36,225 bases of DNA from a virus. Its lineage: Duplodnaviria > Heunggongvirae > Uroviricota > Caudoviricetes. The position numbers and the translations under genes were made by a program. The stretch is taken from the IMG/VR virus record IMGVR_UViG_2526164670_000014, one strand, 5' to 3'. The notes beneath the pieces are model-generated. The model made no database searches, had not been told where the DNA came from, and was given only the letters and a program-made list of their open reading frames with translations. The first letter of the stretch is position 1. The number at the start of each line of letters is the position of its first letter. This document shows, in pieces, positions 3,421-36,225 of this stretch.

Positions 3421-3487
3421 CCAATTAATGAAATTCATGGCGTAAACCCGCCGGGCATTCCTTTATCTAAATTCAGGAGAATTGATT

Positions 3488-3948: not shown

Positions 3949-4802
3949 GCACCATCCTGAAATGGGCGGGAAATAAAACCGCCATTATGTCCGAACTGAA
4001 AAAGCATCTTCCTGCTGGCCAGCGACTGGTTGAACCTTTCGCGGGTTCCTGTGCTGTGATGATGGAGACGGAGTACCCCAGCTATCTTGTTGCGGATATT
4101 AATCCTGATTTAATCAACCTCTATAAAAAGGTTGCTGCTGATTGTGAATCGTTTATATCTCGCGCCAGAGCTTTATTTGAGGAAGCAAACAGGGAGGTGG
4201 CTTATTACAACATAAGGCAGGAGTTTAATTACTCAACTGAAATTACTGATTTCATGAAAGCGGTATATTTCCTGTATCTCAATCGTCACGGTTACCGTGG
4301 TTTATGTCGCTATAACAAGAGCGGGCATTTCAACATTCCCTACGGTAATTATAAAAATCCGTATTTCCCTGAAAAAGAAATTCGCGCTTTTGCAGAAAAA
4401 GCCCAGCGAGCAACGTTTATCTGCGCCAGCTTTGATGAAACGTTGGCGGTGTTGAAGGCGGGGGATGTGGTGTATTGCGATCCGCCTTATGACGGTACGT
4501 TTTCCGGCTATCACGCTGACGGCTTCACTGAAGATGACCAGTATCACCTGGCATCCGTTCTTGAACATCGGTCATCAGAAGGACATCCGGTCATTGTTTC
4601 TAACAGTGACACATCCCTGATCCGTTCGCTGTATCGCAATTTTACTCACCACTATATCAAGGTAAAACGCAGCATCGGTGTGGCAGCTGGCGAGGGTAAA
4701 TCAGCAACAGAAATCATTGCTGTTTCCGGGCCGCGCTGCTGGGTGGGATTTGATTATTCGCGTGGCGTGGATAATTCTGCCGTGTACGGAGTACGTGCAT
4801 GA
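3945..4802 (+). CDS. dam: DNA N6-adenine methyltransferase (Dam-like, orphan)
   Basis: Motifs PFAGS (SAM binding) and DPPY (catalytic); GGAGG upstream of ATG 3945; no restriction-enzyme partner adjacent. Confidence 0.85.
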
Positions 4803-7213
4803 GCCATGCCGATATGAACAACTGCTGCGGCTTTAACGAGGCTGCCGCATCGTTCTCATGGAACAGCCCGAAAAAGGCCATTAACCCTTATCTGGACCCG
4901 GCGGAAGTTGCGCCGGTTTCTACGCTTTCAAACCTGATCACTCTGTACGCTGCCGATAACGAGCAGGAACAGCTGCGCCGAGAGGCACTGAGTGATCAGG
5001 TCTGGGAGCGTTATTTCTTTAATGAATCCCGTGATCCTGTCCAGCGCGAAATGGAGCAGGATAAGCTCATTAGTCGGGCAAAGCTGGCGCATGAGCAGCA
5101 GCGTTTTAATCCGGATATGGTCATTCTGGCGGACGTCAACGCCCAGCCTTCCCATATCAGCAAGCCCCTGATGCAACGTATTGAATACTTCAGCAACCTG
5201 GGCAAGCCAAAGGCTTATTCCCGCTATTTACGTGAGACGATTAAGCCATGTCTGGAACGACTGGAGCATGTACGCGACAGCCAGCTATCTGCATCTTTTC
5301 GTTTTATGGCAAGCCATGAAGGGCTGGACGGCCTGTTTATCCTGCCTGAAATGAGTCAGGATCAGGTGAAGCGCCTGTCTACCCTTGTCGCTGCGCATAT
5401 GAGCATGTGCCTTGATGCCGCTTGTGGTGATTTGTATGCCACCGATGACGTTAAGCCAGAAGAAATCCGCAAGACATGGGAAAAGGTGGCAGCGGAAACC
5501 CTGCGTCTGGATGTTATCCCGCCTGCGTTTGAGCAACTCCGTCGGAAAAGAAACCGCCGTAAACCCGTGCCCTATGAACTCATTCCGGGTTCGCTGGCGC
5601 GTATGTTGTGCGCCGACTGGTGGTACCGGAAATTATGGAAGATGCGTTGCGAATGGCGGGAAGAGCAGTTGCGTGCTGTCTGCCTTGTCAGCAAAAAAGC
5701 ATCTCCCTATGTCAGCTATGAAGCCGTGCTGCATAAACGTGAGCAGCGCCGTAAGTCGCTGGAGTTTTTCCGTTCTCATGAACTGGTGAACGAAGACGGC
5801 GACACGCTGGACATGGAGGATGTGGTAAACGCCAGCAGCAGCAACCCTGCGCATCGCCGCAATGAGATGATGGCCTGTGTTAAAGGTCTGGAGCTTATCG
5901 CGGAAATGCGCGGTGACTGCGCCGTTTTCTACACCATCACCTGTCCGTCACGTTTCCATTCCACGCTAAATAACGGCAGGCCCAACCCGACCTGGACAAA
6001 TGCGACGGTAAGACAAAGCAGCGATTATCTGGTCGGTATGTTTGCTGCATTTCGTAAGGCGATGCACAAAGCCGGGTTGCGCTGGTATGGCGTGCGGGTG
6101 GCTGAGCCGCATCACGACGGCACAGTTCACTGGCACCTGTTGTGTTTCATGCGCAAAAAAGACCGCCGCGCCATTACTGCATTGTTGCGTAAGTTTGCTA
6201 TCCGTGAAGACCGCGAGGAGCTGGGCAATAACACGGGGCCGCGCTTTAAGTCTGAGCTGATTAACCCGCGCAAAGGAACGCCGACAAGCTACATAGCGAA
6301 ATACATCAGTAAGAACATTGACGGGCGTGGTCTGGCTGGCGAGATCAGCAAGGAAACGGGTAAATCTCTGCGTGATAACGCTGAATACGTGAATGCCTGG
6401 GCGTCTTTGCATCGTGTTCAGCAATTCCGCTTCTTTGGCATTCCGGGGCGTCAGGCTTACCGTGAACTGCGATTGCTGGCTGGTCAGGCGGCAAGGCAAC
6501 AGGGGGACAAAAAAGCAGGTGCGCCGGTACTGGATAACCCGCGCCTTGATGCCATCCTGGCTGCTGCTGATGCTGGTTGTTTTGCCACCTACATCATGAA
6601 GCAGGGCGGCGTACTGGTTCCCCGTAAATATCACCTCATCAGAACCGCTTATGAAATCAACGAAGAGCCGACCGCCTATGGCGATCACGGCATTCGTATT
6701 TATGGCATCTGGTCACCCATTGCAGAGGGCAAGATCTGCACTCATGCAGTGAAGTGGAAAATGGTTCGTAAAGCCGTTGACGTTCAGGAGGCGGCAGCCG
6801 ACCAGGGCGCTTGCGCCCCTTGGACTCGTGGCAATAACTGTCCCCTTGCTGAAAATTTGTACCAACAAGGGAAAGACAAATCAGCTGATGGGGATACCAG
6901 AACGGATATCATCCGTATGGATGACAAGGAGTTGCACGATTATCTGCACAGTATGAACAAAAAAGAGCGCCGAGAACTGGCTGCAAGGTTACGCCTGGTG
7001 AAACCGAAACGGCGTAGAGACTACAAACAGCGAATTACAGACCATCAACGACAGCAGCTCGTCTATGAACTGAAGTCCAGAGGATTTGATGGCAGCGAGA
7101 AAGAGGTCGATTTACTCCTTCGCGGCGGCAGCATTCCGTCAGGAGCAGGCCTGCGAATCTTCTATCGGAACCAGCGTTTGCAGGAAGATGATAAGTGGCG
7201 GAACCTGTATTAA
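4799..7213 (+). CDS. A: Rolling-circle replication initiator/endonuclease (P2 gpA family)
   Basis: 804 aa; HUH motif (TVHWHLL) and paired tyrosines YIAKYISK typical of gpA/phiX174-type Rep; start overlaps the dam stop. Confidence 0.85.
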
Positions 7214-7565: not shown

Positions 7566-7799
7566 ATGCGCATTGAAATAATGATCGATAAAGAGCAGAA
7601 GATTAGCCAGTCTATCCTGGACGCCCTTGAATCCGAGCTTTACCGCAATCTGCGCCCCCTGTATCCAAAAACGGTAATTCGTATCCGCAAAGGTAGCTCT
7701 AACGGTGTGGAACTGACCGGACTGCAACTGGACGAAGAAAGGAAGCAAGTGATGAAAATTATGCAGAAGGTGTGGGAAGACGATAGCTGGCTGCATTAA
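7566..7799 (+). CDS. dinI: DinI-family protein
   Basis: 77 aa from the ATG at 7566; MRIEIMIDKEQ...LDALESEL...RIRKG...KVWEDDSWL resembles E. coli DinI in length and sequence. Confidence 0.8.
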   Translation: MRIEIMIDKEQKISQSILDALESELYRNLRPLYPKTVIRIRKGSSNGVELTGLQLDEERKQVMKIMQKVWEDDSWLH

Positions 7800-7807
7800 G
7801 AAACGTT

Positions 7808-7837
7808 GCCCCCAGTAGGGTTCATTCTGATGGGGGC
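7808..7837 (+). terminator. Putative hairpin terminator after dinI
   Basis: gccccca-N16-tgggggc stem-loop right after the dinI stop; weak T-tract (tagttt). Confidence 0.35.
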
Positions 7838-7973
7838 TAGTTTGAGCAACGAGTGAAACGAGGCGTTAGGTGGGAGGCCATTTTGATAAGTTATCACCCA
7901 CTTTATACCAATAACAGAACTGCGTAATAACTATTTACCTCGGGGGAAGATGTGAGCCATACAAATTTCAGTA

Positions 7974-9032
7974 TTAATTTTCAATTCCCTCCATTTTACA
8001 ATGAGTTTTTTCCCAGAACTGTAATACAACAGGACTAGCCCACTCTGGCATCAGTGCGTTATTTAAAAAACTGAAAACATCATGAGACGCATCAGCATTT
8101 TTTCTAAGGAATTTCCAGCCTTTTCTAGTATTTATCTCAACAATACCTAACCCACCATCATCAAACATATGCATCTTGAATTCAGGATTGTTTACACCTA
8201 GAGATTTTATTTCTTTTATGTATGGACTATCTTCATCCATAAATATTTTCTCTATGTGCTTAGCACAATGATATATTTTATTTCGATAAGTTGATACGCT
8301 CACAGCGGTACGCGCTGTTGTTATTCCCATTCCTAATGGGGCATATGCTTTTCCATCCATCACTACGGGCAGATTTATTCCATTTTTTCTTAAGTTTGCA
8401 ATATCTGAATCTGTAGTTGGATGAATACAAGCTAAGCCTGAAATACCTTTCATTTCAAATATTTCTGCTGCTTCTGGCCAGTTGCGTATGAATGTTTCTA
8501 CCAAATCTCTTTGAGAAAAAAGATTTGGTTCTATGTTTTTATCATGATGTTTTATATCAATAAAAAGCACAGCGTTTGAGTACACCTTCAGGAATAATAC
8601 CCACTCAGCACGATCTGAGTATTTTTTACTTGAACTTACTGGATTTAATGGCAGATGGAGGTGATGAATCCCCCAATCAGCCCATAGGTTATCCGTTCTT
8701 TTCGTCGCCTTTTTACCGCTTGTGTCATTGAATAATGTTAATGTTTTACTCTGATAAGGATTTACATCACCACCAGTAGTAAACAACATCTCGATTCTCT
8801 GCAATCCAACCCTTGCGCCATCGTGAATATTTCCAGGAAATCGATCTGATTTTAAAATTATTCGTTTTTGTGGAGCAATGTAGCGTAAAAGAAAATCACA
8901 CCACCTCAGTAGAGGATCGTGAAGATTTGAGTGCCCGGATTCATCATATAATAACCCAAATGCTTGAATTCCCTTCTCTGAAATTTCGTCAATATCTTTG
9001 ATTAGATCAATATTTTTTCGTGCGTCCAACAT
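7974..9032 (-). CDS. Uncharacterised 352-aa protein in AT-rich accessory island (candidate anti-phage/accessory gene)
   Basis: Long uninterrupted ORF, GGAG 5-8 nt upstream of the ATG; about 28% GC by hand count on one 60-nt line versus about 58% on a structural-gene line; no family recognised by eye. Confidence 0.7.
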   Translation of the reverse strand: MLDARKNIDLIKDIDEISEKGIQAFGLLYDESGHSNLHDPLLRWCDFLLRYIAPQKRIILKSDRFPGNIHDGARVGLQRIEMLFTTGGDVNPYQSKTLTLFNDTSGKKATKRTDNLWADWGIHHLHLPLNPVSSSKKYSDRAEWVLFLKVYSNAVLFIDIKHHDKNIEPNLFSQRDLVETFIRNWPEAAEIFEMKGISGLACIHPTTDSDIANLRKNGINLPVVMDGKAYAPLGMGITTARTAVSVSTYRNKIYHCAKHIEKIFMDEDSPYIKEIKSLGVNNPEFKMHMFDDGGLGIVEINTRKGWKFLRKNADASHDVFSFLNNALMPEWASPVVLQFWEKTHCKMEGIEN

Positions 9033-9426
9033 ACTAACTCCGTTTAAATATAATTTTTTAGTATTTCAGTTAATTAATATCTATACGCCGTTATAGCTGA
9101 ATTTTCCGGTGATTTCAGGGCACATTAACCAATTTAGATAATACTATAGTAATGGTTGGGCTGATTTTTCAAGAACAAAAGTAATTTTCAAGCTTTGTAA
9201 CATGTTGATTTTTCACTTTTCGCTCAAGCGGGCTTTCATCTTTGCAAGCCCATATGTTCGTTTTTCAAGCGATTATTCAGATACGTTAACTTCCCATGGC
9301 AGTGCATGACTATGCTGCATGAAATCGCATGATCGATCGAGGATCGTCTATGCTTAGACCAGCCAGAAATGGCGGGCTTTTGCTCATGTCATGCAGCTGC
9401 ATGAAAACCACTGCATAAAGTGGGCA

Positions 9427-9445
9427 GGCGTGGCGGGGATACGAG
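9427..9445. other. cos-like sequence (candidate cohesive-end site)
   Basis: GGCGTGGCGGGGA matches the first 13 nt of the 19-nt cohesive end as I recall it for phage 186 (GGCGTGGCGGGGAAAGCAT); lies in a GC-rich patch between the two island genes. Confidence 0.35.
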
Positions 9446-9521
9446 CGCGCGCAACGGGTTGTCATTCAAACTCCAATGCTATAAAACTGTGTAATACAAA
9501 CAACTAAAGTAGGTGGCCTCA

Positions 9522-11267
9522 GTGGAACTGCAAGCAAATGCTCGAACCTTAACAAACGTGTTATCTGTAAATAAAAAATATATAGTCCCTAGATTCCAAA
9601 GAGAATATTCTTGGGGGAAGGAACAAGTAAGTGAACTTTGGCATGATATAGTTTCCAATATTCATTACCAGGAGGATGGGCAGTATCAATATGATGAGTA
9701 TTTCATCGGTGCTCTCGTTTTGGTCGGGCAGGAAACTAGCTCTGAGCTGATGATTGTAGATGGTCAACAACGTCTTACGACTCTTACTATATTGTTATCA
9801 GCATTATGTGATAAATTTAAGTTGATAAATGAGTTGGCTGTAGCTCAATCAATATATAATAATTATATATCTGGTATGGATGACGATGGCAGACCTTTTT
9901 TTAAATTAGTTAATGAAACTCCTAAGCCATACTTTCAAAACAACATTCAGCATATTGATAAGAGAAATGAAGGGCCGGAGTCCCTTGAAGAAAGAAACTT
10001 GCAATCTTCATATAATGATTTAACTGAGTATCTTTCAGAAGATAATCTTTGCCAGACATTAGGAGTAGATAGAGAGAAATTTATCTACTTGGAAGCGTTG
10101 AAGGCTGTGCGGGATCAAGTTCTACGGTATCTGAAAGTGATTTATATTACAGTTAATGATGAAGATGAAGCTTATACAATCTTTGAAACTCTGAATGCTA
10201 GGGGATTAAACTTAAGTTATGTAGATCTTATAAAAAACAAATTATTTAAGAAACTGAATGGCACACATCCTGATGATGATGCAAAAACTAAATGGAATAA
10301 AATTAGGCAAATAATTGCTAGTCGTAATGGTGTCGGTTCTATCGAGACATTTATCCGTCATTGGTGGGTGTCAAAATATTCTTATGTAAGTAGTGACACT
10401 CTTTATAAAGCTTTTCTGGATAAGTGGAAAAAAGGCGACATTGATGCTTCAGCGTTCATTGATGAGCTACTTTCAGATGCCGAGATATATGTGAAAATAT
10501 CATCGCCTACAGAACAGGATTTTCCTGAACTGGAAATGAAACCAGTTTATCGAGGTTTGCAGGCATTAAGGCTGTTTAACATATCTCAGAACAAACCATT
10601 TTTGTTATCTTTATTTAAGGCAAGAGCAAGAGGAACGCTAAAACTTGTTGATATGAATAATGCAGTGCTGTCAATTGAACGCTTTCATTTTATGTTTAAT
10701 GCTATTTGTTCATTGCGACCATCAGGTATTGAAAGTGCGTATGCTAAAGCTGCTAGGGCTTTAGTGGATGAAGGTTCTACTAAAGCTAGTAATAGACAAG
10801 TAATAAAGTCTTTGCTTGAAATGTTGGTGAAGAGAAAACCAGACATTAATATGTTTGTTGAAAAGTTTGTTATGCTTAAATTTTCAAATCAAGAGTTGAA
10901 AAATAAAAGGTTGATTCAGTACATTTTTAATAGACTTGAGTTACATCACATGAAAACGGGGGAGTATATGCCTGATTCATTAACATTAGAGCATATTCAG
11001 CCTCAGAGTGTGGGGGATTCTGAAGTATATAGCATGATAGGAAATTTATTACCACTTTCAAAAGAATTAAATGAAAAAGCTGGAAATAAGTCTGTTGTGG
11101 ATAAGCTTGAAATTTATAAACAATCACAATATGCGCTAGTTAAAATTTTTATTGATGAATTTGAAAATAAATATCAAGGAGAATGGACGCCCGATCATAT
11201 GAGATCAAGAGCTGCTGAACTAAGTATTTTATCGTATAATTCAGTATGGAAATTGGGGCGTGAGTAA
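9522..11267 (+). CDS. DUF262 (ParB-like NTPase) plus DUF1524 (His-Me/HNH-like nuclease) fusion protein, GmrSD-like type IV restriction family
   Basis: N-terminal YIVPRFQREYSW and DGQQRLTT motifs (DUF262); C-terminal LTLEHIQPQS...GNLLPLSKELNEKAGNK (DUF1524-like H..N..N); GTG start at 9522 with AGGTGG 5 nt upstream (ORF track begins at 9513); very AT-rich. Confidence 0.8.
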   Translation: MELQANARTLTNVLSVNKKYIVPRFQREYSWGKEQVSELWHDIVSNIHYQEDGQYQYDEYFIGALVLVGQETSSELMIVDGQQRLTTLTILLSALCDKFKLINELAVAQSIYNNYISGMDDDGRPFFKLVNETPKPYFQNNIQHIDKRNEGPESLEERNLQSSYNDLTEYLSEDNLCQTLGVDREKFIYLEALKAVRDQVLRYLKVIYITVNDEDEAYTIFETLNARGLNLSYVDLIKNKLFKKLNGTHPDDDAKTKWNKIRQIIASRNGVGSIETFIRHWWVSKYSYVSSDTLYKAFLDKWKKGDIDASAFIDELLSDAEIYVKISSPTEQDFPELEMKPVYRGLQALRLFNISQNKPFLLSLFKARARGTLKLVDMNNAVLSIERFHFMFNAICSLRPSGIESAYAKAARALVDEGSTKASNRQVIKSLLEMLVKRKPDINMFVEKFVMLKFSNQELKNKRLIQYIFNRLELHHMKTGEYMPDSLTLEHIQPQSVGDSEVYSMIGNLLPLSKELNEKAGNKSVVDKLEIYKQSQYALVKIFIDEFENKYQGEWTPDHMRSRAAELSILSYNSVWKLGRE

Positions 11268-11294
11268 ATGCCGGGGGGGGGCCCAGCATATTTA

Positions 11295-12344
11295 TCAAAA
11301 AGAATCGTTTGTGAAATTTAGGGAGTAGGCATCAAAGCGTATTGCTTCTTCGCCTAGCCAATAGTTAAGTTCTTGTAGCTGTTTCTGCAGGGGCATCAGT
11401 TCGTTGCGGACAAAAACACGACTAGCCTTCTCCACATCACCAAAGCCCCCAACATTATTAGGCATTATCCCCATCATTTGCGGCGGCACACGGTGTGCCG
11501 CCATCATGTCGTCCCGGCTCACGTTCTTGATATTCAGAAACTCATCCTTCGCCGCGACTTCTGACAACGGGATAATCTGAAGCCCGTCCTTTTTGCCGTT
11601 AGGAGAGTACATAAACAGGTTGCGGAAGTTGCCTGGCCCTTTGGCACTTTTCATTGCATTGCGGAGGTTGTTCACATCCTCCTGGTTCTGCGCGGCATCG
11701 GTCATGTACATGATGAAGCCTGCATGACTGCCGTTAATATAATACTTCCGGCGGAACAGCGTGGCGGACTCGTTGAGCAGGGCTGATGGAATGGCAGAAA
11801 GATAACCTGGCAGGCCGTAGATCTCCTGGTTGATGTCCGGTTCCATCAGATGAAAAATGCTGCCTTTCGTGAACTGATACGGCTGGGTTGTCATACCGTA
11901 TTGCACAAACCAGTAGGTATCCAGGTCTAACCCGCGTCGGGTGTATTTTGCCAGAGCAGGCTCAAGGGCGATAACTTCACCGAAGCGGTTCGTGCGTTTC
12001 TCCAGGTAGGCGTTACCAAATACCAGATAGTCCTGCACAAAACGTGAAAAAGCCTGCTGGCTGAGCAGCGGGTGAGGGATGTAGGTACTGGTCAGAATGT
12101 TGCATTTCACCGCAATTGGTGAGCTGTGATGCACGGCGGCGCGGAAGGTTCGTGCCAGTCCGTCAAAGCTGACGGGCGGCTCATACCAGCGGTCCATCTG
12201 TACGCATTCCACATAGTCCAGCAGTTCTCGGCGGTCCAGAACAGGAACGGGATCGCCGAAGCTGAATGCTTCGGCTGTAGTCTGGCTTTTAAGCTGGATC
12301 TGTTTCGTCGCCGCAGCGCGGTTCTTCTTACTCTTTCCCATCAA
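11295..12344 (-). CDS. Q: Portal protein (P2 gpQ family)
   Basis: 349 aa, immediately downstream of and overlapping the terminase ATPase gene; position and size as P2 Q. Confidence 0.85.
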   Translation of the reverse strand: MMGKSKKNRAAATKQIQLKSQTTAEAFSFGDPVPVLDRRELLDYVECVQMDRWYEPPVSFDGLARTFRAAVHHSSPIAVKCNILTSTYIPHPLLSQQAFSRFVQDYLVFGNAYLEKRTNRFGEVIALEPALAKYTRRGLDLDTYWFVQYGMTTQPYQFTKGSIFHLMEPDINQEIYGLPGYLSAIPSALLNESATLFRRKYYINGSHAGFIMYMTDAAQNQEDVNNLRNAMKSAKGPGNFRNLFMYSPNGKKDGLQIIPLSEVAAKDEFLNIKNVSRDDMMAAHRVPPQMMGIMPNNVGGFGDVEKASRVFVRNELMPLQKQLQELNYWLGEEAIRFDAYSLNFTNDSF

Positions 12345-14107
12345 AAAATCTCCACAATATTGCTGGTATTGGCGGATTCGCCCTGCAGCGGTTCGTTAAA
12401 CAATGCGTGCATCGTTGCCCAGGCCAGATCGGCGTGGCTGGCTTCTTCGCTGCGGCTGGCTTCATAGGTCGGGCGGTTGCCGCTGGCGGTGGTTGCGCGA
12501 CGGATTGCCATGAATGACTGCGCAATGTCGGTGTGTCCGGCGTCAAACTCCAGACGGCGGTGGCTGATAATGTCGTAGGCCTTGAGTACCAGGGCGTTTT
12601 TAACGTTGGGGTTGTAGACAAACTCCCGGACGGCTGGAAAAAACGCTTTCACGTTCTCGTAAACCCCGTGACCGACACCCGTCGAGTCGATGCCGATATA
12701 GGTCACGTTGTACTGCTCGGTCAGTTTTTTGATTGCATCAGCCTGGGCGCGGAAGTCCATCCCGCGCCACTGGTGACGCTCAAGAATGCGAAACTTACCG
12801 CCTGGCACGGCTGGCGGTGCCACCACCACGCATCCGGCGCTGTCGCCGTTCTGCGTACCTTTTGCCGGGTCATAACCGATCCACACCTCGCGCCAGCCAA
12901 ACGGGCGCAGGGCCAGTGCATGAAAGTCGGTCCAGACTTCCCAGCTGTCCACCATGCACGCCTGCAGTTCGCTGAGCGGGAACACGGACGCGAGATCGTC
13001 CACGAACTCGCACATCAGCAGGTTCTGATATTCGTCCGGGCTGTATTCCATGCGTAGCTGGTCGAGGTCGAACAGGTTACAGCCGCCGCGCACCGCATCT
13101 TCCACGGTGACTATCTGGCGGTATTGCCCGTCTGCGCACAGCAGGCCGGGGGCCAGATTGTTGTGGGACAGGTCGATGTCCACCTTATCGGCTTTGTTGC
13201 GCCCACGGTTGAACAGCGCACCGGACCAGAACGGATAAGCACTGTGTGTCAGGCTGGATGGCGTGGAAAAATAGGTCTGCCGCCATTTCTTGTGAATAGC
13301 CATACCGGAAGCCACTTTGCGCAGCTCCTGGAATTTCGGGATCCAGAAATATTCATCCAGATACAGGTTGCCGTGGTAACTCTGGGCCGTGCGGGCATTG
13401 GTGCCGAGGAAGTAAAGCGTGGCCCCGTCAGGAAGCACTATCGGATCACCTTTCAGCTCCACCTCGACTTCTTTGGCGAAGTCGATGATGTACTGCTTAA
13501 AGACGTGAGCCTGTGCCTTACTGGCAGAAAGGAAAATCTGGTTACGTCCGGTAAGCAGGGCGTCAATCAGGGCTTCACGGGCAAAGTAAAAGGTCGCGCC
13601 GATCTGGCGTGACTTCAGCAGGTTGCGGATGCGGTTGGTTTTTCCGGCTTCCCACCAGTGGCGCTGGTAGTTGAACATGGAGGAATGGAAAATTTCTTCC
13701 AGCTTCTCAATCTGTTCATCGGTGAAAACGTTCTTTTCCGGCTGACGGCGCGGGCCTTTGTTGCGGTTGGCGACGTTAGGGTTTAAGTCGGCTTCGTTGC
13801 CGCCATTGTTAAACTTGCCGATCCGCGCGTGGCGTTCCGACTGGCGCGCCAGCAGGTCAATCTCTTTGAAATCTTTCCCTTCTTTGTGCTCCTTCATAAT
13901 GAGCTGGCAATAGCGTGCGGCGGTGGTGAGCTGCATCTGATCCAGCGGCCCATAGTCACCCCACTTGTCGCGTTTTTTCCAGCTGTGAACGGTTGCAACT
14001 TTCTCGCCCAGCATTTCAGCAATGCGGGCTACGCGGTATCCCTGAAAGTACAGCAGCATGGCCTGCCGACGGGGATCGAGATCTGCGGGTGTCAGTGTGG
14101 TGTTCAT
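12341..14107 (-). CDS. P: Terminase large (ATPase) subunit (P2 gpP family)
   Basis: 588 aa, divergent from the O-N-M-L capsid operon exactly as in P2; size and position typical. Confidence 0.85.
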   Translation of the reverse strand: MNTTLTPADLDPRRQAMLLYFQGYRVARIAEMLGEKVATVHSWKKRDKWGDYGPLDQMQLTTAARYCQLIMKEHKEGKDFKEIDLLARQSERHARIGKFNNGGNEADLNPNVANRNKGPRRQPEKNVFTDEQIEKLEEIFHSSMFNYQRHWWEAGKTNRIRNLLKSRQIGATFYFAREALIDALLTGRNQIFLSASKAQAHVFKQYIIDFAKEVEVELKGDPIVLPDGATLYFLGTNARTAQSYHGNLYLDEYFWIPKFQELRKVASGMAIHKKWRQTYFSTPSSLTHSAYPFWSGALFNRGRNKADKVDIDLSHNNLAPGLLCADGQYRQIVTVEDAVRGGCNLFDLDQLRMEYSPDEYQNLLMCEFVDDLASVFPLSELQACMVDSWEVWTDFHALALRPFGWREVWIGYDPAKGTQNGDSAGCVVVAPPAVPGGKFRILERHQWRGMDFRAQADAIKKLTEQYNVTYIGIDSTGVGHGVYENVKAFFPAVREFVYNPNVKNALVLKAYDIISHRRLEFDAGHTDIAQSFMAIRRATTASGNRPTYEASRSEEASHADLAWATMHALFNEPLQGESANTSNIVEIF

Positions 14108-16161: not shown

Positions 16162-16812
16162 ATGAGCCTGAGTCCCGCACGGCAGCATCGCCTGCGCGTT
16201 CAGGCTGAACAGGCCGCTCGCGAGGGTGGCAGTGTTCGCCACGCGTCGGGCTATGACCTGATGCTGCTGCAACTGGCGGAAGACCGCCGCCGTCTCAAGG
16301 GCGTTCAGTCCACGGTCAAAAAAGCGGAAATCAAGGTGGAGCTGCTGCCGAAATATGCCGCCTGGGCGGAGGGCGTTCTGGCTGCCGGAGGCGCTCAACA
16401 GGATGACGTGCTGATGTACGTGATGCTGTGGCGCATTGATGCCGGAGATTATGCCGGGGCGCTGGAGATCGGGCGTCATGCCCTGCGTCATGGCTGGGTG
16501 ATGCCGCTGGGTAACCGCAACGTGCAGACCGTGCTGGCAGAGGAAATGGCAGACGCGGCGCAGAGCGCAATGCTTGCCGCCACCGGCTTTGATGCCGACC
16601 TGTTGCTGCAGACGCTGGAGCTGACAGACGGTCTGGATATGCCGGACCAGTCACGGGCGCGTCTGCATAAAGCGATTGGCGCTGTCCTGAGTGAAAGCAA
16701 TCCGGCTTCCGCCCTTAATCATCTCAACCATGCGTTACAGCTCGATCCCCGCTGTGGCGTGAAAAAAGACAAACAGCAGCTGGAGCGCAGACTGCGCAAT
16801 GACAGCCGCTGA
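16162..16812 (+). CDS. M: Terminase small/endonuclease subunit (P2 gpM family)
   Basis: 216 aa; conserved blocks LRHA.GY..ML..LA.D...LK and AQQDDVLMYVMLWRID..DYAGALEIGRHAL recalled from P2 gpM. Confidence 0.85.
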   Translation: MSLSPARQHRLRVQAEQAAREGGSVRHASGYDLMLLQLAEDRRRLKGVQSTVKKAEIKVELLPKYAAWAEGVLAAGGAQQDDVLMYVMLWRIDAGDYAGALEIGRHALRHGWVMPLGNRNVQTVLAEEMADAAQSAMLAATGFDADLLLQTLELTDGLDMPDQSRARLHKAIGAVLSESNPASALNHLNHALQLDPRCGVKKDKQQLERRLRNDSR

Positions 16813-23948: not shown

Positions 23949-24392
23949 ATGAATCAATATATTTATTCCCCTTCGGAAAATGCATTTTATGCTGTTAATT
24001 TAAAAAATACTTATGAAGTAAATGGAACATGGCCCGCTGATGCATTAGATATTCCTGATGACATTTCTGTAAAATATATGGCGGAACCGCCACAAGGGAA
24101 AATCCGAGTTGCAGGGGAAAATGGTTTTCCCACATGGGCTGAAATACCTCCACCATCACATGAGGAACTTATTGAACAGGCCGAATCAGAGAGGCAATTA
24201 TTGATTAACCATGCCAACGAATACATGAACAGTAGGCAATGGTCTGGTAAAGCAGCTATTGGTCGCCTGAAGGGGGACGAGCTGGCGCAATATAATTTGT
24301 GGCTGGATTATCTGGACGCACTGGAACTGGTCGATACTTCCGGGGCGCCAGATATTGAATGGCCTACGCCTCCGGCAGTTCAGGCCAGATGA
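23949..24392 (+). CDS. G: Tail fibre assembly chaperone (P2 gpG family), orientation A
   Basis: 147 aa immediately after H, inside the invertible segment. Confidence 0.75.
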   Translation: MNQYIYSPSENAFYAVNLKNTYEVNGTWPADALDIPDDISVKYMAEPPQGKIRVAGENGFPTWAEIPPPSHEELIEQAESERQLLINHANEYMNSRQWSGKAAIGRLKGDELAQYNLWLDYLDALELVDTSGAPDIEWPTPPAVQAR

Positions 24393-24966
24393 CATCCGGC
24401 GCTGTGCTGGTATTTGTTGCCGTCACCGCGTCAATGTAATCCAGCACAGCGTTAAGCCGGGTTGTTTCTGCCTGCATCAACTTCCGTCCGGCCTGTAATT
24501 TCAGCTGAATCAGACTGATGGAAGCCATTGCAGCATCAATCAGTGACTGACGCTGTGCTTCTGCCGCGTCTACTGCGGCGCTATGCTGTGCCTCAGTATC
24601 GGTCACCCATTTCTCACCATCCCATTTATCGTATGGCGTTAATGGGGCGATAGTGGTTGTATTTTCGGGGTAATCACCCGGTGCTGTGATTTCTTTGGCA
24701 TCTCCCGTTTCGGTGTTATAGACGATTTCACCGCGATGGTCTGGCACATATTCCCATGAATTTAAATCTACAGAACGGCAAATTGTATAACCAGCCTTAT
24801 ATGTACTAGGAGCGTCTAAACAGGAATATGCTGGAATACCGACACCCACTGCAAGATATTCAGTTGATGCAGAAATATATTCCCGAGTTTCACCATCGTA
24901 GTTATAAACGGTAATATTCCCCGCCTTCGTGGCAATAAACTCGCTATTTAATACTGCGTTATCCAT
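24364..24966 (-). CDS. Alternative tail fibre assembly chaperone (G'), orientation B
   Basis: 200-aa ORF on the opposite strand, convergent with G and downstream of the alternative fibre cassette; C-terminal block similar to the G C-terminus (W..YLDAL/AVLDYIDAV..T...PDI.WP.PP). Confidence 0.7.
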   Translation of the reverse strand: MDNAVLNSEFIATKAGNITVYNYDGETREYISASTEYLAVGVGIPAYSCLDAPSTYKAGYTICRSVDLNSWEYVPDHRGEIVYNTETGDAKEITAPGDYPENTTTIAPLTPYDKWDGEKWVTDTEAQHSAAVDAAEAQRQSLIDAAMASISLIQLKLQAGRKLMQAETTRLNAVLDYIDAVTATNTSTAPDVIWPELPEA

Positions 24967-25445
24967 TATGCAGCCCTCACGATAAAGTTAAATGCAATAT
25001 TTCGTGGACGGGTCTCACTCCCACCAGTATTACCGATACTCCCTCGTGAATGAAGTGTCGGTGATGGGATCAGACTCCCTCCTGTATTTGTGGCATCAAG
25101 TCCCCGTCCTTGTGTGTATGTTTTTTTGAAAATCGTAGCCAGTTCCCATTCATCTTTTGTGTCGTAACCATCATTGGCAACAACAATATGGCGGTGTTTT
25201 TCCAGCATCCCAGCCTGAAGGCTCAATAAAGCACGTCCAGCATCAATACCACGCCCGTCATCCCAGCCACGAATAAACTCACCACGTAAATCTGGCAATT
25301 TATTTGTCGGGTAAGCCTTTGCCAGTTCCGGGTATTCTTCAGCAGAAAAAGCTGCTCCGTTGCATTTCAGCCAGCCTGTTGGCGGAGTGGCTGAAGGCCA
25401 CGGAACAGGGACACCAACAGGTAATGCAGAGCCTTCTCCCAAACC
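24966..25445 (-). CDS. Alternative tail-fibre C-terminal cassette (Hv'), promoterless until inversion
   Basis: Reverse-strand ORF beginning at crossover site 2 in the same frame as H relative to the shared GLGE codons; contains tail-fibre receptor-binding motifs (PTGW..C.G...S..EYPEL...LPDLRGEFIRG). Confidence 0.7.
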   Translation of the reverse strand, partial: GLGEGSALPVGVPVPWPSATPPTGWLKCNGAAFSAEEYPELAKAYPTNKLPDLRGEFIRGWDDGRGIDAGRALLSLQAGMLEKHRHIVVANDGYDTKDEWELATIFKKTYTQGRGLDATNTGGSLIPSPTLHSRGSIGNTGGSETRPRNIAFNFIVRAA

Positions 25446-25459
25446 AACGTTTAAGAAAA
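25434..25459 (+). repeat. Invertase crossover site 2 (gix/hix/cix-like 26-bp site)
   Basis: TTCTCCCAAACC-AA-CGTTTAAGAAAA; inverted relative to site 1; about 55 bp upstream of the invertase start. Confidence 0.7.
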
Positions 25460-25514
25460 TGCAGCGATTACGACTAACTGGCATCATCCCCGGTTTTTAT
25501 TCAGGGGATTGATC

Positions 25515-26081
25515 ATGCTTATTGGCTATGTACGCGTGTCAACAAATGACCAGAACACCGATTTGCAACGTAATGCACTGAACTGCGCGGGATGTGAGCG
25601 GATTTTTGAGGACAAAATCAGTGGCACTAAGTCCGACAGACCGGGGCTTAAAAAACTGCTCAGGACACTATCGGCAGGTGACACACTGGTTGTCTGGAAG
25701 CTGGACAGGTTGGGGCGCAGTATGCGGCATCTTGTTACGCTGATAGAAGAGTTGCGCCAGCGCGGCGTGAATTTCCGAAGCCTGACTGACAGTATTGATA
25801 CCAGTACCCCAATGGGCCGTTTCTTTTTTCATGTCATGGGTGCCCTGGCTGAAATGGAACGCGAACTGATAGTTGAACGTACCAGGGCAGGGCTGGCTGC
25901 AGCTCGTGCTAAAGGCAGAGTAGGTGGACGCCGTCCTAAGTTGACTACCGAACAGTGGGCACAGATTGGACGTTTACTCGAGGCCGGAGAATCAAGACAG
26001 CGTATTGCACTGATTTTTGATGTAGGCGTTTCTACCATTTATAGAAAATTTCCGGCAAATAAGAGCAATGAATCTCCCTGA
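25515..26081 (+). CDS. Serine DNA invertase (Gin/Cin/Pin/Hin family)
   Basis: 188 aa from the ATG at 25515; N-terminal GYVRVSTNDQ with catalytic Ser, resolvase core, C-terminal HTH (GESRQRIALIFDVGVSTIYRKF). Confidence 0.9.
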   Translation: MLIGYVRVSTNDQNTDLQRNALNCAGCERIFEDKISGTKSDRPGLKKLLRTLSAGDTLVVWKLDRLGRSMRHLVTLIEELRQRGVNFRSLTDSIDTSTPMGRFFFHVMGALAEMERELIVERTRAGLAAARAKGRVGGRRPKLTTEQWAQIGRLLEAGESRQRIALIFDVGVSTIYRKFPANKSNESP

Positions 26082-28412: not shown

Positions 28413-31400
28413 TAATAACCTGCGCCTGCAGGTCATTCTTAATGCGGTTGACAAACTCACCCGCCCATTCCGTGCTGCACAGGCCAGTTCGAAAGAGCTG
28501 GCTGGCGCAATCAGAAACTCCCGTGACGCATTAAAGCAACTCAATCAGGCGGGTAACAGCCTGGAAAAATTTCGCAAGCTGCAGGCCGATAACAAAAAGT
28601 TAGGCGACAGGCTGAACTATGCCAGACAGAAGGCAAATTTGCTTAGTTCTGAGCTGGAAGCGATGGAACAACCATCACAAAGGCATCTTGTGGCTTTAGG
28701 TCGGCAAACGCTGGCAGTCCAACGCCTGGAAGAACAACAAAAATATTTGCAGAAGCAAACGGCGCTTGTGCGTGCAGAACTGTACCGGGCGGGAATTTCT
28801 GCGAAAGATGATGCGGGAGCAACTGCCCGTTTAGCCCGTGAAACATCACGTTATAACCAGGAACTTTCGAAACAAGAGGCGCGGCTGAAGCGACTGGGGG
28901 AAGCTCAGCGCAGGATGAATGCGGCGCGTGCCAGTTATGCCCGTTCGCTGGAGGTGCGTGATCGTATTGCAGGTGCCGGAGCCACCACCACGGCTGCAGG
29001 GCTGGCAATGGGCGCACCAGTGATGGCGGCAGTAAAAAGCTATACCAGCATGGAAGATGCCATGAAAGGTGTGGCAAAGCAGGTCAATGGTCTGCGTGAC
29101 GATAATGGCAACCGCACCGCGCGTTTTTACGAAATGCAGGATGCCATCAAGGGTGCCAGCGAACAGTTGCCGATGGAAAACGGTGCTGTGGACTTTGCCG
29201 CACTGGTTGAAGGTGGTGCGCGCATGAACGTCGCAAATCCTGACGACAGCTGGGAAGACCAGAAACGTGATCTGCTGGCCTTCGCCAGCACGGCAGCAAA
29301 GGCGGCAACAGCCTTTGAGCTGCCAGCGGATGAACTGTCAGAAAGTCTGGGGAAAATCGCCCAGCTCTACAAAATCCCTACCCGCAATATTGAACAGCTC
29401 GGTGATGCGCTGAACTATCTGGATGATAACGCCATGTCGAAAGGGGCAGACATCATTGATGTCATGCAACGCCTGGGCGGTGTGGCTGATCGTCTGGATT
29501 ATCGTAAAGCGGCGGCACTGGGTTCCACCTTTCTGACACTGGGCGCTGCGCCGGAGGTTGCAGCCAGTGCAGCAAACGCGATGGTGCGTGAATTGTCCAT
29601 TGCCACCATGCAAAGCAAGAGTTTCTTTGAAGGGATGAATCTGCTGAAACTCAATCCTGAAGTGATTGAAAAGCAGATGACGAAGGATGCGATGGGAACT
29701 ATCCAGCGTGTGCTGGAGAAGGTGAACGCACTGCCGCAGGACAAGCGTCTGTCTGCCATGACCATGTTGTTTGGTAAAGAGTTTGGTGATGACGCGGCGA
29801 AACTGGCAAACAACCTTCCGGAACTGCAGCGCCAGCTAAAACTGACAGCGGGCAATGATGCGCTCGGTTCCATGCAGAAAGAATCCGACATCAACAAAGA
29901 CTCACTTTCTGCTCAGTGGTTGCTGGTCAAAACCGGAGCGCAGAACACCTTCAGCAGCCTGGGCGAAACGCTGCGCCAGCCGCTGATGGATATTCTGTAC
30001 ACGGTGAAAAGCATCACGGGGGCGTTGCGCCGCTGGGTGGAAGCTAACCCGGAACTGACAGGCACACTGATGAAAGTAGCGGCTGTTGTGGCTGCGGTTA
30101 CCGTAGGCCTCGGCACCTTAGCGGTGGCGCTGGCTGCAGTGCTGGGGCCGCTGGCAGTCATCCGTCTGGGATTCTCTGTGCTGGGTATCAAAACGTTACC
30201 TTCCGTTACGGCAGCAGTAACACGAACCAGCAGCGCGTTGTCCTGGTTAGCTGGCGCTCCACTGGCACTGCTGCGACGCGGGCTTGCTTCATCGGGCAAC
30301 GCAGCGGGTTTACTTACTGCGCCGTTGTCGTCTTTGCGCCGCACGGCATCACTGACGGGGAATGTCCTGAAAACTGTAGCAGGTGTGCCGGTTGCACTGT
30401 TGCGGTCTGGATTATCCGGTTTACGTGCTGTTGCTGTGATGTTTATGAATCCACTGGCAGCACTACGCGGTGGACTGGCTGCCGCAGGCGCGGTGCTGCG
30501 AGTACTGGCATCCGGTCCGCTGGCGATGCTGCGCGTTGCTCTGTATGCCATATCTGGTCTGTTAGGTGCTCTGCTCAGTCCGATAGGTCTTGTGGTTACT
30601 GCACTGGCGGGCGTGGCGCTGGTTGTCTGGAAATACTGGCAACCCATCACCGCATTTCTCGCTGGTGTGGTGGAAGGATTCAAAGCGGCGGCAGGTCCCA
30701 TCAGTGCAGCATTCGAACCACTTAAGCCTGTGTTTCAGTGGATTGGCGACAAAGTGCAGGCGTTGTGGGGCTGGTTTACTGATCTGCTGACGCCCGTTAA
30801 GTCGACCTCTGCCGAACTGCAGAGCGCAGCGGCAATGGGGCGACGATTCGGGGAGGCACTGGCGGAAGGGCTGAATATGGTCATGCATCCGCTGGACTCC
30901 CTGAAATCCGGCGTTTCCTGGTTGCTGGAGAAACTCGGCATTGTCAGTAAAGAGGCTGCAAAGGCGAAACTGCCGGAAAGCGTGACGCGTCAGCAACCTG
31001 CGACGGTGAATGCAGACGGTAAAGTGATGATGCCATCGGGTGGTTTTCCATCATGGGGATATGGCTTTGCGGGGATGTATGACAGCGGCGGCTATATCCC
31101 GCGCGGGCAGTTTGGCATCGTCGGTGAAAACGGGCCGGAAATTGTTAACGGCCCGGCAAATGTGACCAGCCGGAGAAATACAGCTGCACTGGCTGCCGTT
31201 GTTGCCGGAATGATGGGCGTTGCTGCCGCGCCTGCAGAGCTTCCACCGTTGCATCCTTTGGCACTTCCCGCGAAAGGCGGCGAAGCGATGGTGAGTCGTG
31301 CAGCCACTGTGCCGCCCGTTCACCGGATTGAGGCACCGACGCAGATCATCATTCAGACGCAGCCAGGACAAAGTGCGCAGGATATTGCGCGGGAGGTGGC

Positions 31401-33151: not shown

Positions 33152-33370
33152 ATGATGATTTGCCCACTGTGTGGAAGTGCCGCCCATACTCGCAGCAGTT
33201 TTCAGGTATCTTCATTGACCAAAGAGCGTTATAACCAGTGCCAGAACATTAACTGCAGCCATACTTTTGTTACCCATGAAACTTTTGTTCGTTCGATTGC
33301 AACACCAAAAGAGTCGAATCCAGTTCAGCCGCATCCAATGAAATCAGGACAGGTGGCGCTCTCTCTTTGA
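33152..33370 (+). CDS. ogr: Ogr/Delta-family zinc-finger late-gene transcription activator
   Basis: 72 aa from the ATG at 33152; CPLCGSAAH...CQNINCSHTF (C2-C2 zinc finger) as in P2 Ogr; stop abuts attR. Confidence 0.85.
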   Translation: MMICPLCGSAAHTRSSFQVSSLTKERYNQCQNINCSHTFVTHETFVRSIATPKESNPVQPHPMKSGQVALSL

Positions 33371-33392
33371 CGCTGCCGCCATTTTGTCGCCA
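33371..33392. repeat. attR core (cgctgccgccaTtttgtcgcca)
   Basis: Direct repeat of 19-40 immediately after the ogr stop. Confidence 0.7.
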
Positions 33393-33450
33393 TCGTTAAA
33401 AAACAGTGCTTCTAACATCATGATTTTAAACATCTTAAATTTCAGGCAAC

Positions 33451-33493
33451 AAAAAACCCATCAACCTTGAACCGAAATGGCGGGGTTGATGGG
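33451..33493 (-). terminator. Rho-independent terminator of ybjL (minus strand)
   Basis: Hairpin cccatcaacc/ggttgatggg (33457-33466 and 33484-33493) followed on the minus strand by a T6 tract (A-run 33451-33456 on plus). Confidence 0.55.
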
Positions 33494-33605
33494 CTCCACA
33501 AAATGGGGACATCAAAGAAAAGCAGTGGCACTAATTAAGACTGATGCCCTGCGGAAAAGTTCTGCGGTTGTGCAAAAAAATTTCATTTTCAGGGCAACTT
33601 CAGTT

Positions 33606-35291
33606 TTATCCTAATCCTGGCCATACCATGACGATGATTGTCCCTGCCAGCGTCAGCAGGACGTTGGCGATTGCGTAGGTGCCCGCATAGCCCAGCGCAG
33701 GGATGTTACTGCGAGCTGTATCACTGATGATCTCCATTGCCGGCGCGCAGGTGCGTGCGCCCATCATTGCGCCGAACAACAGTGCGCGGTTCATTCGCAA
33801 TACATAAGCACCGAACAAGAAACAGATAACCACGGGCACAAGACTGACAATTAATCCGGCAATCAACATCTGACCGCCAATCGCGCCCAGGCCGTTATTA
33901 ATACCGCTACCGGCGCTCAGACCAACGCCTGCCATAAACACCATCAAGCCGAACTCTTTCACCATGCTTAATGCACCTTGCGGAATGTAACCGAAGGTCG
34001 GGTGGTTAGCACGCATAAAGCCCAGCATAATTCCGGCGAATAACAACCCGGCAGCGTTCCCCATGCCGAAACTGAATGTGCTGAACTGGAAGGTGATCAT
34101 CCCGATCATCAGCCCAATAACAAAGAAGGCGCAAAATGCCAGCAGGTCAGTGACCTGGCTGTGAATCGAGATAAAGCCGATGCGATCGGCGATGGTTTTT
34201 ACGCGACGGGCATCACCGCTGACTTGTAAAACGTCACCTTTGTTAAGCACGACGTTGTCATCTATCGGCATCTCAATCTGGCTACGAATGACGCGGTTAA
34301 GGAAGCAACCGTGATCGGTCAACTTCAGTTGTGCGAGACGTTTACCTACAGCGTTATGGTTTTTAACGACCACTTCTTCAGTGACGATACGCATGTCGAG
34401 AAGGTCACGATCGAAAACTTCTTTACCGTTACGGAAGCTGGGATCGAGTCGGGCATGGGCGTCGGGATAGCCTACCAACGCTATTTCATCGCCCATTTGT
34501 AGCACGGCATCACCGTCTGGATTTGCCAGAATCCCGTTACGTCGAATACGTTCAATGTAGCAGCCGGTTTGTCGATAAATACCCAGTTCACGCAGATTTT
34601 TGCCGTCGGTCCAGGCCACCAGCTCCGGGCCGACGCGATAGGCGCGGATCACCGGTAAATAAACCTTACGGTTGGCATCAGTGTCCAGGCCACGTTCGCG
34701 GGCGATTTGCTGGGCGCTGGTCTGTAAGTCCTGATGCTGCAATTTCGGCAAGTAACGCGCACCAACAATCAAACTCACCAGACCGATTAAATAGGTTAAG
34801 GCATACCCGAGGCTCAGATTATCCAGTGCCAGTGAGAGCTGCCTGCTTTCCATGCCGGAATGACGCAGTGTATCGCCAGCACCGACCAGAACCGGTGTCG
34901 ACGTCATAGAGCCTGCTAACATACCGGCCGTCAGGCCAATATCCCAGCCAAACAGCTTACCTAACCCTAAGGCGATCACCAGCGCACTGCCAACCATCAC
35001 CAGTGCTAACATTAGGTAATTTTTCCCATCGCGAAAAAAAATGGAAAAAAAGTTCGGTCCGGCTTCGACCCCGACGCAGAAAATAAACAGCATAAAGCCA
35101 AGATTAAGCGCATCGGTGTTAATGCTGAAATGTTGTTGGCCTAATAACAGCGATACGACTAAAACGCCAATGGAATTACCCAGTTGGATCGAACCAAGTC
35201 GTAACTTTCCGAGACATAGCCCAAGCGCGAGGACCACAAATAATAACAGAATGTAATTCCCATTTAACAATTCGGCGACGTTTATATTCAC
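33606..35291 (-). CDS. ybjL: Putative transport protein YbjL (two TrkA-C domains, AAE-family transporter)
   Basis: 561-aa polytopic membrane protein recognised as E. coli YbjL by sequence and by the ybjL-ybjM-grxA neighbourhood. Confidence 0.85.
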
Positions 35292-35560
35292 GGAGGCTAA
35301 CTTCTTGTTTACTAGTAAGCTGTTGAAAGAAATGGTAATTTACGATAATGTTTTTTACCAGAATTCAGGGCGCAGATTCATTCAGCGCACCTAAACGATA
35401 GTAAAGTAACAATATATTTTACTAGTGTAATCACATTAGGTATCAACGGCTATATGAATTGCGTTGGCCTATATTAGCATGGAATGCGAAGCGGCTTTAT
35501 CTTACTGAACGCCACACTGGCGAAAAATGTGTTCGATAGACGCAGTGTCAGGAGGAACGA

Positions 35561-35938
35561 GTGAAACATAAACAACGTTGGGCGGGGGCAATCTGCTGTT
35601 TTGTCCTCTTCATTGTGGTGTGCCTTTTTCTGGCGACGCACATGAAAGGCGCTTTTCGGGCTGCCGGGCATCCTGAAATCGGCTTGCTATTTTTCATTCT
35701 TCCTGGAGCAGTCGCCAGCTTCTTTTCACAGCGTAGAGAAGTCCTGAAACCTCTGTTTGGCGCAATGCTGGCGGCACCCTGTTCGATGCTCATTATGCGG
35801 CTGTTTTTTTCACCGACGCGCTCATTCTGGCAAGAGCTGGCATGGTTACTAAGCGCGGTGTTCTGGTGTGCGCTGGGGGCACTGTGTTTCTTATTTATCA
35901 GTAGTTTGTTTAAACCACAGCACAGAAAAAATCAGTAA
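35561..35938 (+). CDS. ybjM: Inner membrane protein YbjM
   Basis: 125-aa hydrophobic protein between ybjL and grxA as in E. coli. Confidence 0.75.
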   Translation: MKHKQRWAGAICCFVLFIVVCLFLATHMKGAFRAAGHPEIGLLFFILPGAVASFFSQRREVLKPLFGAMLAAPCSMLIMRLFFSPTRSFWQELAWLLSAVFWCALGALCFLFISSLFKPQHRKNQ

Positions 35939-35939
35939 A

Positions 35940-35956
35940 GCCCTCAACGCGAGGGC
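35940..35956. terminator. Bidirectional hairpin between convergent ybjM and grxA
   Basis: gccctc-aacgc-gagggc stem-loop immediately after the ybjM stop and before the grxA stop. Confidence 0.45.
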
Positions 35957-35967
35957 TTGTCAGACGA

Positions 35968-36225
35968 TCAGGCGTCCAGATTTTCTTTCACCCATGCAGC
36001 AAAATCGGTATAGCCGCCGATATGTTGCTGATCGACAAAAATCTGCGGCACGGTTTCTACGGGTTTACCTGCCTTTTGTTGTAGATCTTCTTTAGTGATC
36101 CCTTCCGCACGAATATCTACATACTGATACTGAAAATCATCGCGTTCATTGCTCAATTTCTCAGCCAGATCTTTTGCACGCACACAGTAAGGGCAACCCG
36201 AACGACCAAAAATAACGGTTTGCAT
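35968..36225 (-). CDS. grxA: Glutaredoxin 1
   Basis: 85 aa, MQTVIFGRSGCPYCVRAKDLAEKL with CPYC active site; matches E. coli GrxA as recalled; start codon is the last triplet of the window. Confidence 0.9.
   Translation of the reverse strand: MQTVIFGRSGCPYCVRAKDLAEKLSNERDDFQYQYVDIRAEGITKEDLQQKAGKPVETVPQIFVDQQHIGGYTDFAAWVKENLDA

Follow-up and report, generated by a model that had tools for sequence, protein, structure and literature searches.

Positions 9302-9452 of the window, by which we mean the whole 36,225-nt stretch of viral DNA analysed here, very probably constitute the cos packaging site of a Fels-2/SEN8-type P2-family prophage and a fixed point in the gpA-gpQ defence hotspot, as judged from homology. 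The feature is already known, as the published cos of the Fels-2/SEN8 lineage within the described P2 defence hotspot, since both the hotspot (Rousset et al. 2022, PMC9122126; Vassallo et al. 2022, 10.1101/2022.05.12.491691; and a passage of PMC5694545) and the SEN8 cos are in the literature. The coordinates of the features are collected in Table 1.

Table 1. Features of the cos region and the genes around it (window positions)
Feature	Positions	Strand	Basis
Replication endonuclease gpA, left hotspot anchor	4799..7213	+	Pfam Phage_GPA 2.7e-127
DinI-family gene, last backbone gene left of cos	7566..7799	+	Pfam DinI 2.5e-22
Left cargo, 352 aa, PD-T4-7 defence homologue	7974..9032	-	PADLOC PD-T4-7 E = 8.7e-144, full length
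Conserved cos block, 151 bp	9302..9452	+	125-bp upstream arm + 19-nt cohesive end + CGCGCGC
Cluster of three (T)GCATG	9303..9331	+	TGCAT at 9303 and 9316; CGCATG at 9326
Degenerate hairpin + T-run	9357..9381	+	Relatives: GGCCCGCCAG..CTGGCGGGC, then TTTT
Palindrome CATGCAGCTGCATG + extra TGCAT	9390..9416	+	Palindrome 9390-9403 holds the -29 TGCAT; read from sequence
cosN	9427..9445	+	19 nt, predicted 5' cohesive ends; SEN8-identical, 186 15/19, P2 cosL 14/19
CGCGCGC, right flank of cosN	9446..9452	+	7/7 to P4, 6/7 to P2 and 186
Right cargo, 584 aa, GmrSD-family (DUF262/DUF1524), type IV restriction-like	9513..11267	+	Pfam GmrSD_N 1e-38, GmrSD_C 1.2e-11
Portal gpQ, right hotspot anchor	11295..12344	-	Pfam Phage_portal 4.8e-19
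Large terminase gpP	12341..14107	-	Pfam Terminase_6N 4.9e-65, Terminase_6C 1.7e-49, Terminase_5 (gpP-like) 3.3e-27
Small terminase gpM	16162..16812	+	Pfam Phage_term_smal 2.2e-40

The cohesive end and the conserved block around it

The 13-mer GGCGTGGCGGGGA (9427-9439, + strand) has a single match across the 36-kb window even when 1 mismatch is allowed, with 0.04 expected from shuffles. It opens the 19-mer GGCGTGGCGGGGATACGAG at 9427-9445, which agrees with the annotated cos of 186 (NC_001317 1-19, GGCGTGGCGGGGAAAGCAT) at 15/19 positions and with P2 cosL (GGCGAGGCGGGGAAAGCAC) at 14/19. The sequence-only reading, made from the letters of the window before any comparison, had noticed a cos-like motif at 9427 and counted 13 of 19 matches to the 186/P2 cohesive end; the site was right and the count is replaced by these two. 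It had also called the match tentative, since the sequence diverges from 9440 onward. The divergence is real, but it is the variant of the Fels-2/SEN8 lineage: employing a full-text motif search, we found the SEN8 genome announcement, which gives the cos site as ggcgtggcggggatacgag, and window 9427-9445 matches this published cos at 19/19 positions. Bases 1-19 of the SEN8 record are labelled as a putative cos site, and the homologous sequence of Escherichia phage Cartapus is labelled 'putative cos site, homologous to the cos of P2 phage'.

In BLAST alignments, the records of 186 and SEN8 both have their last base at window 9426 and their first base at 9427, and the P2 record likewise ends at the position aligned with 9426. 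These record ends and the two cos labels bear out the earlier suggestion that the motif is cos. When the right and left ends of 186 are joined, they read ...gtcatgcaactgcattaaaaccgacccataaagtgggca/ggcgtggcgggg... (slash at the joint), and the window reads ...gtcatgcagctgcatgaaaaccactgcataaagtgggca/ggcgtggcgggg.... Upstream of the cut (-40 to -1), the window agrees with 186 at 33/40 positions, with P2 at 27/40 and with P4 at 26/40. The ends of P2 and 186 DNA were determined chemically. The cos annotations of the ATACGAG variant in SEN8 and Cartapus are homology-based, so the cut positions rest on the alignment to P2 and 186; on this alignment, the nicks would fall between 9426 and 9427 in the top strand and between 9445 and 9446 in the bottom strand.

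Further marks of a P2-family (Peduoviridae) cos were found in the window: a 19-nt cohesive end of the GGCG(A/T)GGCGGGG... type, a conserved core around it as in the 55-bp P2/P4 cos core (Ziermann & Calendar 1990, as cited in passages of PMC5694545 and PMC9122126), a location between the replication/DinI region and Q with the GGCG strand toward Q, and P2-type gpM, gpP and portal genes, all intact, in one element. The GC content is 0.495 over 9300-9499 and 0.30-0.37 in the flanks, as the earlier remark on a GC-rich patch between AT-rich flanks had it.

The order A(+), DinI(+), cos(+), Q(-) was found in 262/262 tblastn segments in related loci among the matches listed. Wherever a DinI homologue was detected in the related loci, it lay upstream of cos, and DinI is annotated directly after gpA in Fels-2, SopEPhi, MLG42, SEN8 and Cartapus. 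The order and sizes of the ORFs from int to D are presumably those of the P2 gene map, with the Pfam check covering A, DinI, Q, P and M only. At the right end of the window lie ogr, rybB, ybjL, ybjM and grxA, and 33300-36225 is 100% identical to E. coli SBF45; the prophage adjoins rybB/ybjL in an E. coli chromosome. The RybB sRNA gene (33448-33526, - strand; 105 bits) lies beside the ogr end and is the sole Rfam match in the window, where no tRNA genes were found; rybB may be the attachment site of the prophage. At 24364-26081, the tail-fibre genes are followed by ORFs of 200 aa and 173 aa (- strand) and then by an ORF of 190 aa (+ strand), an ORF layout reminiscent of an invertible tail-fibre segment plus invertase gene.

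To delimit the conserved unit, we anchored 113 unique relatives (among the matches listed) at the cut. Identity rose from about 0.25 to more than 0.9 at 9302 and was back to background at 9453, which sets the unit at 9302-9452; within it, 9427-9452 is invariant by search design, the exact 26-nt core (the 19-mer and the next 7 bases) having been required. An exact scan of IMG/VR with this core returned at least 120 contigs. In BLAST, the block was matched over the same span by about 90 records of phages whose hosts are Klebsiella, Yersinia, Salmonella, Escherichia and Erwinia. We aligned the window with P2, 186, SEN8, Cartapus, Fels-2, SopEPhi, MLG42, phage 500465-1 and plasmid p13P477T-2. The 19-mer plus CGCGCGC is identical among the Fels-2-type sequences, a 1-base deletion in 500465-1 being the sole exception. 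Homology with relatives stops at 9452, the last base at which the window is identical to both E. coli ET350 and contig L092; from 9453, these two are unrelated to it. Alignment with P2, 186 and related cos regions, proposed earlier as a check, thus extended the homology past the 19-mer and showed that the match is not fortuitous.

The conserved sequence is distributed unequally about the cut, with just 7 conserved bases 3' of the cohesive end. In the upstream arm, TGCAT stands at -124, -111 and -29 from the cut in the window, 186, P2 (-123 for the first copy) and the satellite P4; at -101, where a fourth copy lies, the window reads CGCAT, and it alone has a TGCAT at -15. The 125-bp arm with its TGCATs at fixed distances is likely the recognition part of the site, and the motifs themselves would be bound by terminase. 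The P2 terminase also packages P4, whose core cos signal is shared with P2 (PMC9122126); that P4 keeps the TGCAT spacing thus argues strongly for the block being the packaging signal.

Among known systems, the closest is the SEN8/Fels-2 group (Felsduovirus and Elveevirus; SopEPhi, Cartapus, MLG42), in which the 19-nt end plus CGCGCGC is identical to that of the window, the upstream arm is 85-90% identical and cos likewise lies between DinI and Q. Cargo genes flank cos on either side in SEN8, Fels-2 and SopEPhi; in Cartapus, a gene separates cos from the portal gene. The window differs from the group in its private arm substitutions, its weakened hairpin and the identity of its cargo. In 186 (and PSP3), the cohesive end opens with the same 13 nt, 6/7 bases match downstream and the TGCAT distances are equal, but at positions 14-19 the window has the ATACGAG variant and 186 an AAGCAT-type sequence, and 186 has no gene between cos and the portal gene. 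P2 and P4 have the CGCGCGC flank and TGCATs at about -124, -111 and -29 as in the window; they differ from it at position 5 of the cohesive end (T in the window, A in both) and in the 3' third of that end, and in P2 cargo (tin, old) is confined to the right-end side of cos, whereas the window carries cargo on both sides. The cos of lambda (cosQ-cosN-cosB) is alike in having a nicking site flanked by terminase recognition sequence and 5' cohesive ends; it has no sequence homology to the block, its ends are 12 nt rather than 19 nt long, and in the window nearly all of the conserved recognition arm is found to a single side of the cut.

Predicted packaging and rival readings

By homology with P2 and 186, the excised circular genome would, after induction, be recognised at 9302-9452 by its own gpM/gpP terminase, with gpM the expected recogniser and gpP the expected cutter of cos. 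Nicks 19 nt apart would then linearise the virion genome and leave GGCGTGGCGGGGATACGAG as its 5' single-stranded ends. The packaged genome would begin, on the left, with the GmrSD gene and finish, on the right, with the PD-T4-7 gene. For annotation, the value of the assignment is that it would fix the virion genome ends of the prophage. In the open literature, we found no text on the direction of P2 packaging or on a minimal cos mapped by deletion.

We predict that the copy of cos in the window is active. That it is cos by descent but inactive or weakened, in a cryptic prophage or through its private arm substitutions, is unlikely. At 11 positions (9336, 9338, 9348, 9350, 9355, 9358, 9361, 9369, 9385, 9413 and 9421), the window differs from almost all relatives among the matches listed, and the hairpin at 9357-9377 is degraded. 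In Fels-2 this hairpin folded at -23.6 kcal/mol (z = -5.65), and it is strong in most other relatives too; in the window, 2 left-arm mismatches (9358, 9361) remove the main stem. Against a loss of function, the 26-nt core and all position-conserved TGCATs are intact, and none of the structural ORFs, terminase and portal among them, is truncated. Inspection by eye, without folding, gave different inverted repeats in 186 and P4 near the aligned position and none in P2, suggesting that a hairpin is not generally required. The arm variant of the window recurs at 124/125 or 125/125 positions in two independent sources, contig L092 and E. coli ET350, each with a different right-hand gene. From this recurrence and from P2 doing without the inverted repeat, we judged an impaired site to be improbable.

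A still weaker case can be made that the block is kept for a non-packaging role, as a terminator, promoter, small RNA or small protein, with the true cos elsewhere; this we consider very unlikely. The strong hairpin and T-run inside the block in relatives would suit it, but a terminator within the block is compatible with cos function, and in the window's own copy the consensus scan gave no convincing terminator and no promoter above shuffled expectation. Small hypothetical ORFs are drawn across the block in public records; no reading frame across it, however, is open in more than 33/98 variants among the matches listed, so that the block is non-coding, and the 51-aa minus-strand frame of the window is open in 3/98 of these variants. 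The Rfam search matched no family to the block. Identities of the block as a structured RNA and as a protein-coding sequence were accordingly both rejected, the former for want of an Rfam match in the region and the latter on the best frame (33/98 variants among the matches listed). Moreover, no other cos-like sequence was found in the window, there is no room for one beside Q, and the 186 and P2 records end exactly at the aligned position. A chance resemblance in a GC-rich intergenic patch is hardly credible: only the first 13 bases match, uninterrupted, the consensus used in the sequence-only reading, yet 0.04 such matches are expected per window, and some 90 phage records and at least 120 viral contigs share the 151 bp of homology, at a constant genomic position.

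Small ORFs spanning cos were seen in the window at 9310-9465 (-) and 9391-9507 (+), in PP599993 at 29937-30080 and in NZ_CP128790 as QUY19_RS24415. The public records call such ORFs hypothetical proteins or a pseudogene; being drawn across cos without conservation of frame, they are probably spurious.

Cargo genes in two slots separated by cos

Both genes flanking cos are predicted, from their sequences, to be acquired defence cargo. The left gene is missing from relatives with an empty left site, and its product (352 aa) had no Pfam match; the family PD-T4-7 comes from the screen of Vassallo et al. 2022 (10.1101/2022.05.12.491691), in which four of the systems were found at this position in P2-like prophages. 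The sequence-only reading had put this gene between 'tum' and cos; the placement holds, and the supposed tum is, according to Pfam, the DinI-family gene. The right gene starts at 9513 or 9522. Its product also matched HEC-06, a candidate family, in PADLOC (3.8e-90), and the same GmrSD gene lies beside cos in E. coli WL7562.

The spacings on either side of cos were compared among the matches listed. From DinI to cos, they range over 203-3445 nt, with an 'empty' spacing of about 204 nt in 24/80 loci and 1628 nt in the window. From cos to Q, they range over 142-3532 nt, with 'empty' spacings of 142-184 nt in 12/86 loci and 1850 nt in the window; in P2 and 186, about 170 nt separate cos from the portal gene. 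These empty and occupied spacings on each side show that the earlier proposal, cargo gained on both sides of the packaging site, was correct. Both anchors were visible in 55 loci among the matches listed; the most frequent arrangement in this set is an insert on each side (35 loci, against 12 with inserts on the right only, 6 on the left only and 2 with none).

Variable content between gpA and gpQ, the mark of the hotspot, was evident across 117 loci among the matches listed, with 89 flank families in the cos-Q slot and 61 in the left slot, the cos-Q slot being the more diverse. The gpA-gpQ interval was described as a defence hotspot of P2-like phages by Rousset et al. 2022 (PMC9122126), according to whom the cos sites of P2 and P4 both adjoin a defence hotspot; in a passage of PMC5694545, cosL-Q is treated as a hotspot long proposed, with citation of Dodd & Egan 1996 and Nakayama 1999. 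As in these papers (Rousset, Vassallo), the window has variable defence genes between the replication endonuclease and the portal gene, beside cos. The papers treat one interval, whereas here two slots are parted by cos and the cos arm is linked to the left one. On the predicted packaging, the split would place PD-T4-7 at the right genome end and GmrSD at the left.

Relatives that bear other right cargo become homologous to the window again only at 11322-11425. These positions fall in the 3' end of Q, whose stop codon is at 11295, so that the final 10-40 codons of the portal gene belong to the exchanged unit. A second cos beside Q (about 11270-11294), which the sequence-only reading had named as the place where the virion termini might otherwise map, was rejected: the gap between the GmrSD and Q stop codons is 27 nt and holds no cos-like sequence. 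Within this gap there is an 11-base G-run, GGGGGGGGGGG.

A PD-T4-7 gene opposite a DUF262/GmrSD protein across cos was seen in the window and in E. coli ET350 (L137 5767-7548). The two DUF262 proteins are 37% identical (E = 3e-127). The combination may be a repeated pairing or a coincidence.

A probable exchange junction at the cos core

The two cargo genes of the window occur together in 0/5,426 complete E. coli genomes. One group of E. coli genomes is 99.9% identical to window 7800-9452 and another is about 99% identical to window 9302-11400; the cos block is the exact overlap of the two groups. E. coli ET350 has 2 mismatches to the window in 1653 nt up to 9452 and is unrelated from 9453, and E. 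coli WL7562 has 16 differences in 9323-9413 and zero in 9414-9973. The window is a mosaic relative to ET350 and WL7562, with its junction in the 39 bp from 9414 to 9452, cosN included. Narrowing the junction further by rare bases at -14 and -6 was abandoned; the T at -6 occurs in several unrelated contexts and is therefore uninformative.

We then compared the 125-bp arm over pairs of the 117 loci (among the IMG/VR matches listed, including L014-L133), pairs that are phylogenetically non-independent and loci that were chosen for the exact 26-nt core. In the 172 pairs that shared the left flank but not the right, the arm had a median of 1 mismatch. Where the right flank was the same and the left different (33 pairs), the median was 15; in the background of pairs with both flanks different (5860 pairs), it was 18. 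Among left-flank families joined to at least 2 right-flank families, 10/18 keep one arm variant; in the counterpart comparison, 1/17 right-flank families does so. These data support the conclusion that the cos arm moves together with the left flank and independently of the right one, and that it is at the invariant core that the right slot is swapped.

How such exchange proceeds is a more tentative matter. The cohesive end itself could be the crossover point for cargo shuffling, a proposal that we hold as possible though rather doubtful. During co-infection or co-induction, the left end of one P2-like genome would anneal to the right end of another, which is conceivable because many P2-like phages share one cohesive end. 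Such annealing would place junctions exactly at cosN and would swap the cos-Q slot apart from the unit of left cargo and arm. Cohesive ends as a substrate for recombination were a speculation of Rousset et al. 2022 (PMC9122126). The same linkage pattern would be expected from homologous recombination within the roughly 56 bp of near-invariant sequence that surround cosN. Beyond the literature, and mildly new, the data suggest that the cos core is also the exchange junction, in support of that published speculation; the wider significance is modest. If the cos core is indeed where cargo modules are joined, it would help to explain the fast reshuffling of defence genes in P2-like phages and satellites.

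Two loci carrying the core are unusual. In L041 (IMGVR_UViG_2700989567_000009, 13.5 kb), the identical 26-nt core lies at 12055 of the reoriented locus behind an unrelated upstream arm, and gpA, DinI and Q are absent within the locus. The genes upstream of its cos encode a ParB-HTH protein, an IstB/DnaC-like ATPase, DUF977 and YdaT, and a DndB-like gene lies just downstream; L041 could be a satellite or another element borrowing this packaging signal. L076 (IMGVR_UViG_3300011853_000021) has two inverted cos cores, at 3440-3465 (-) and 6704-6729 (+), about 3.2 kb apart, with DinI and Q matches scattered over the whole locus, and could be either a misassembly or a real inverted duplication.
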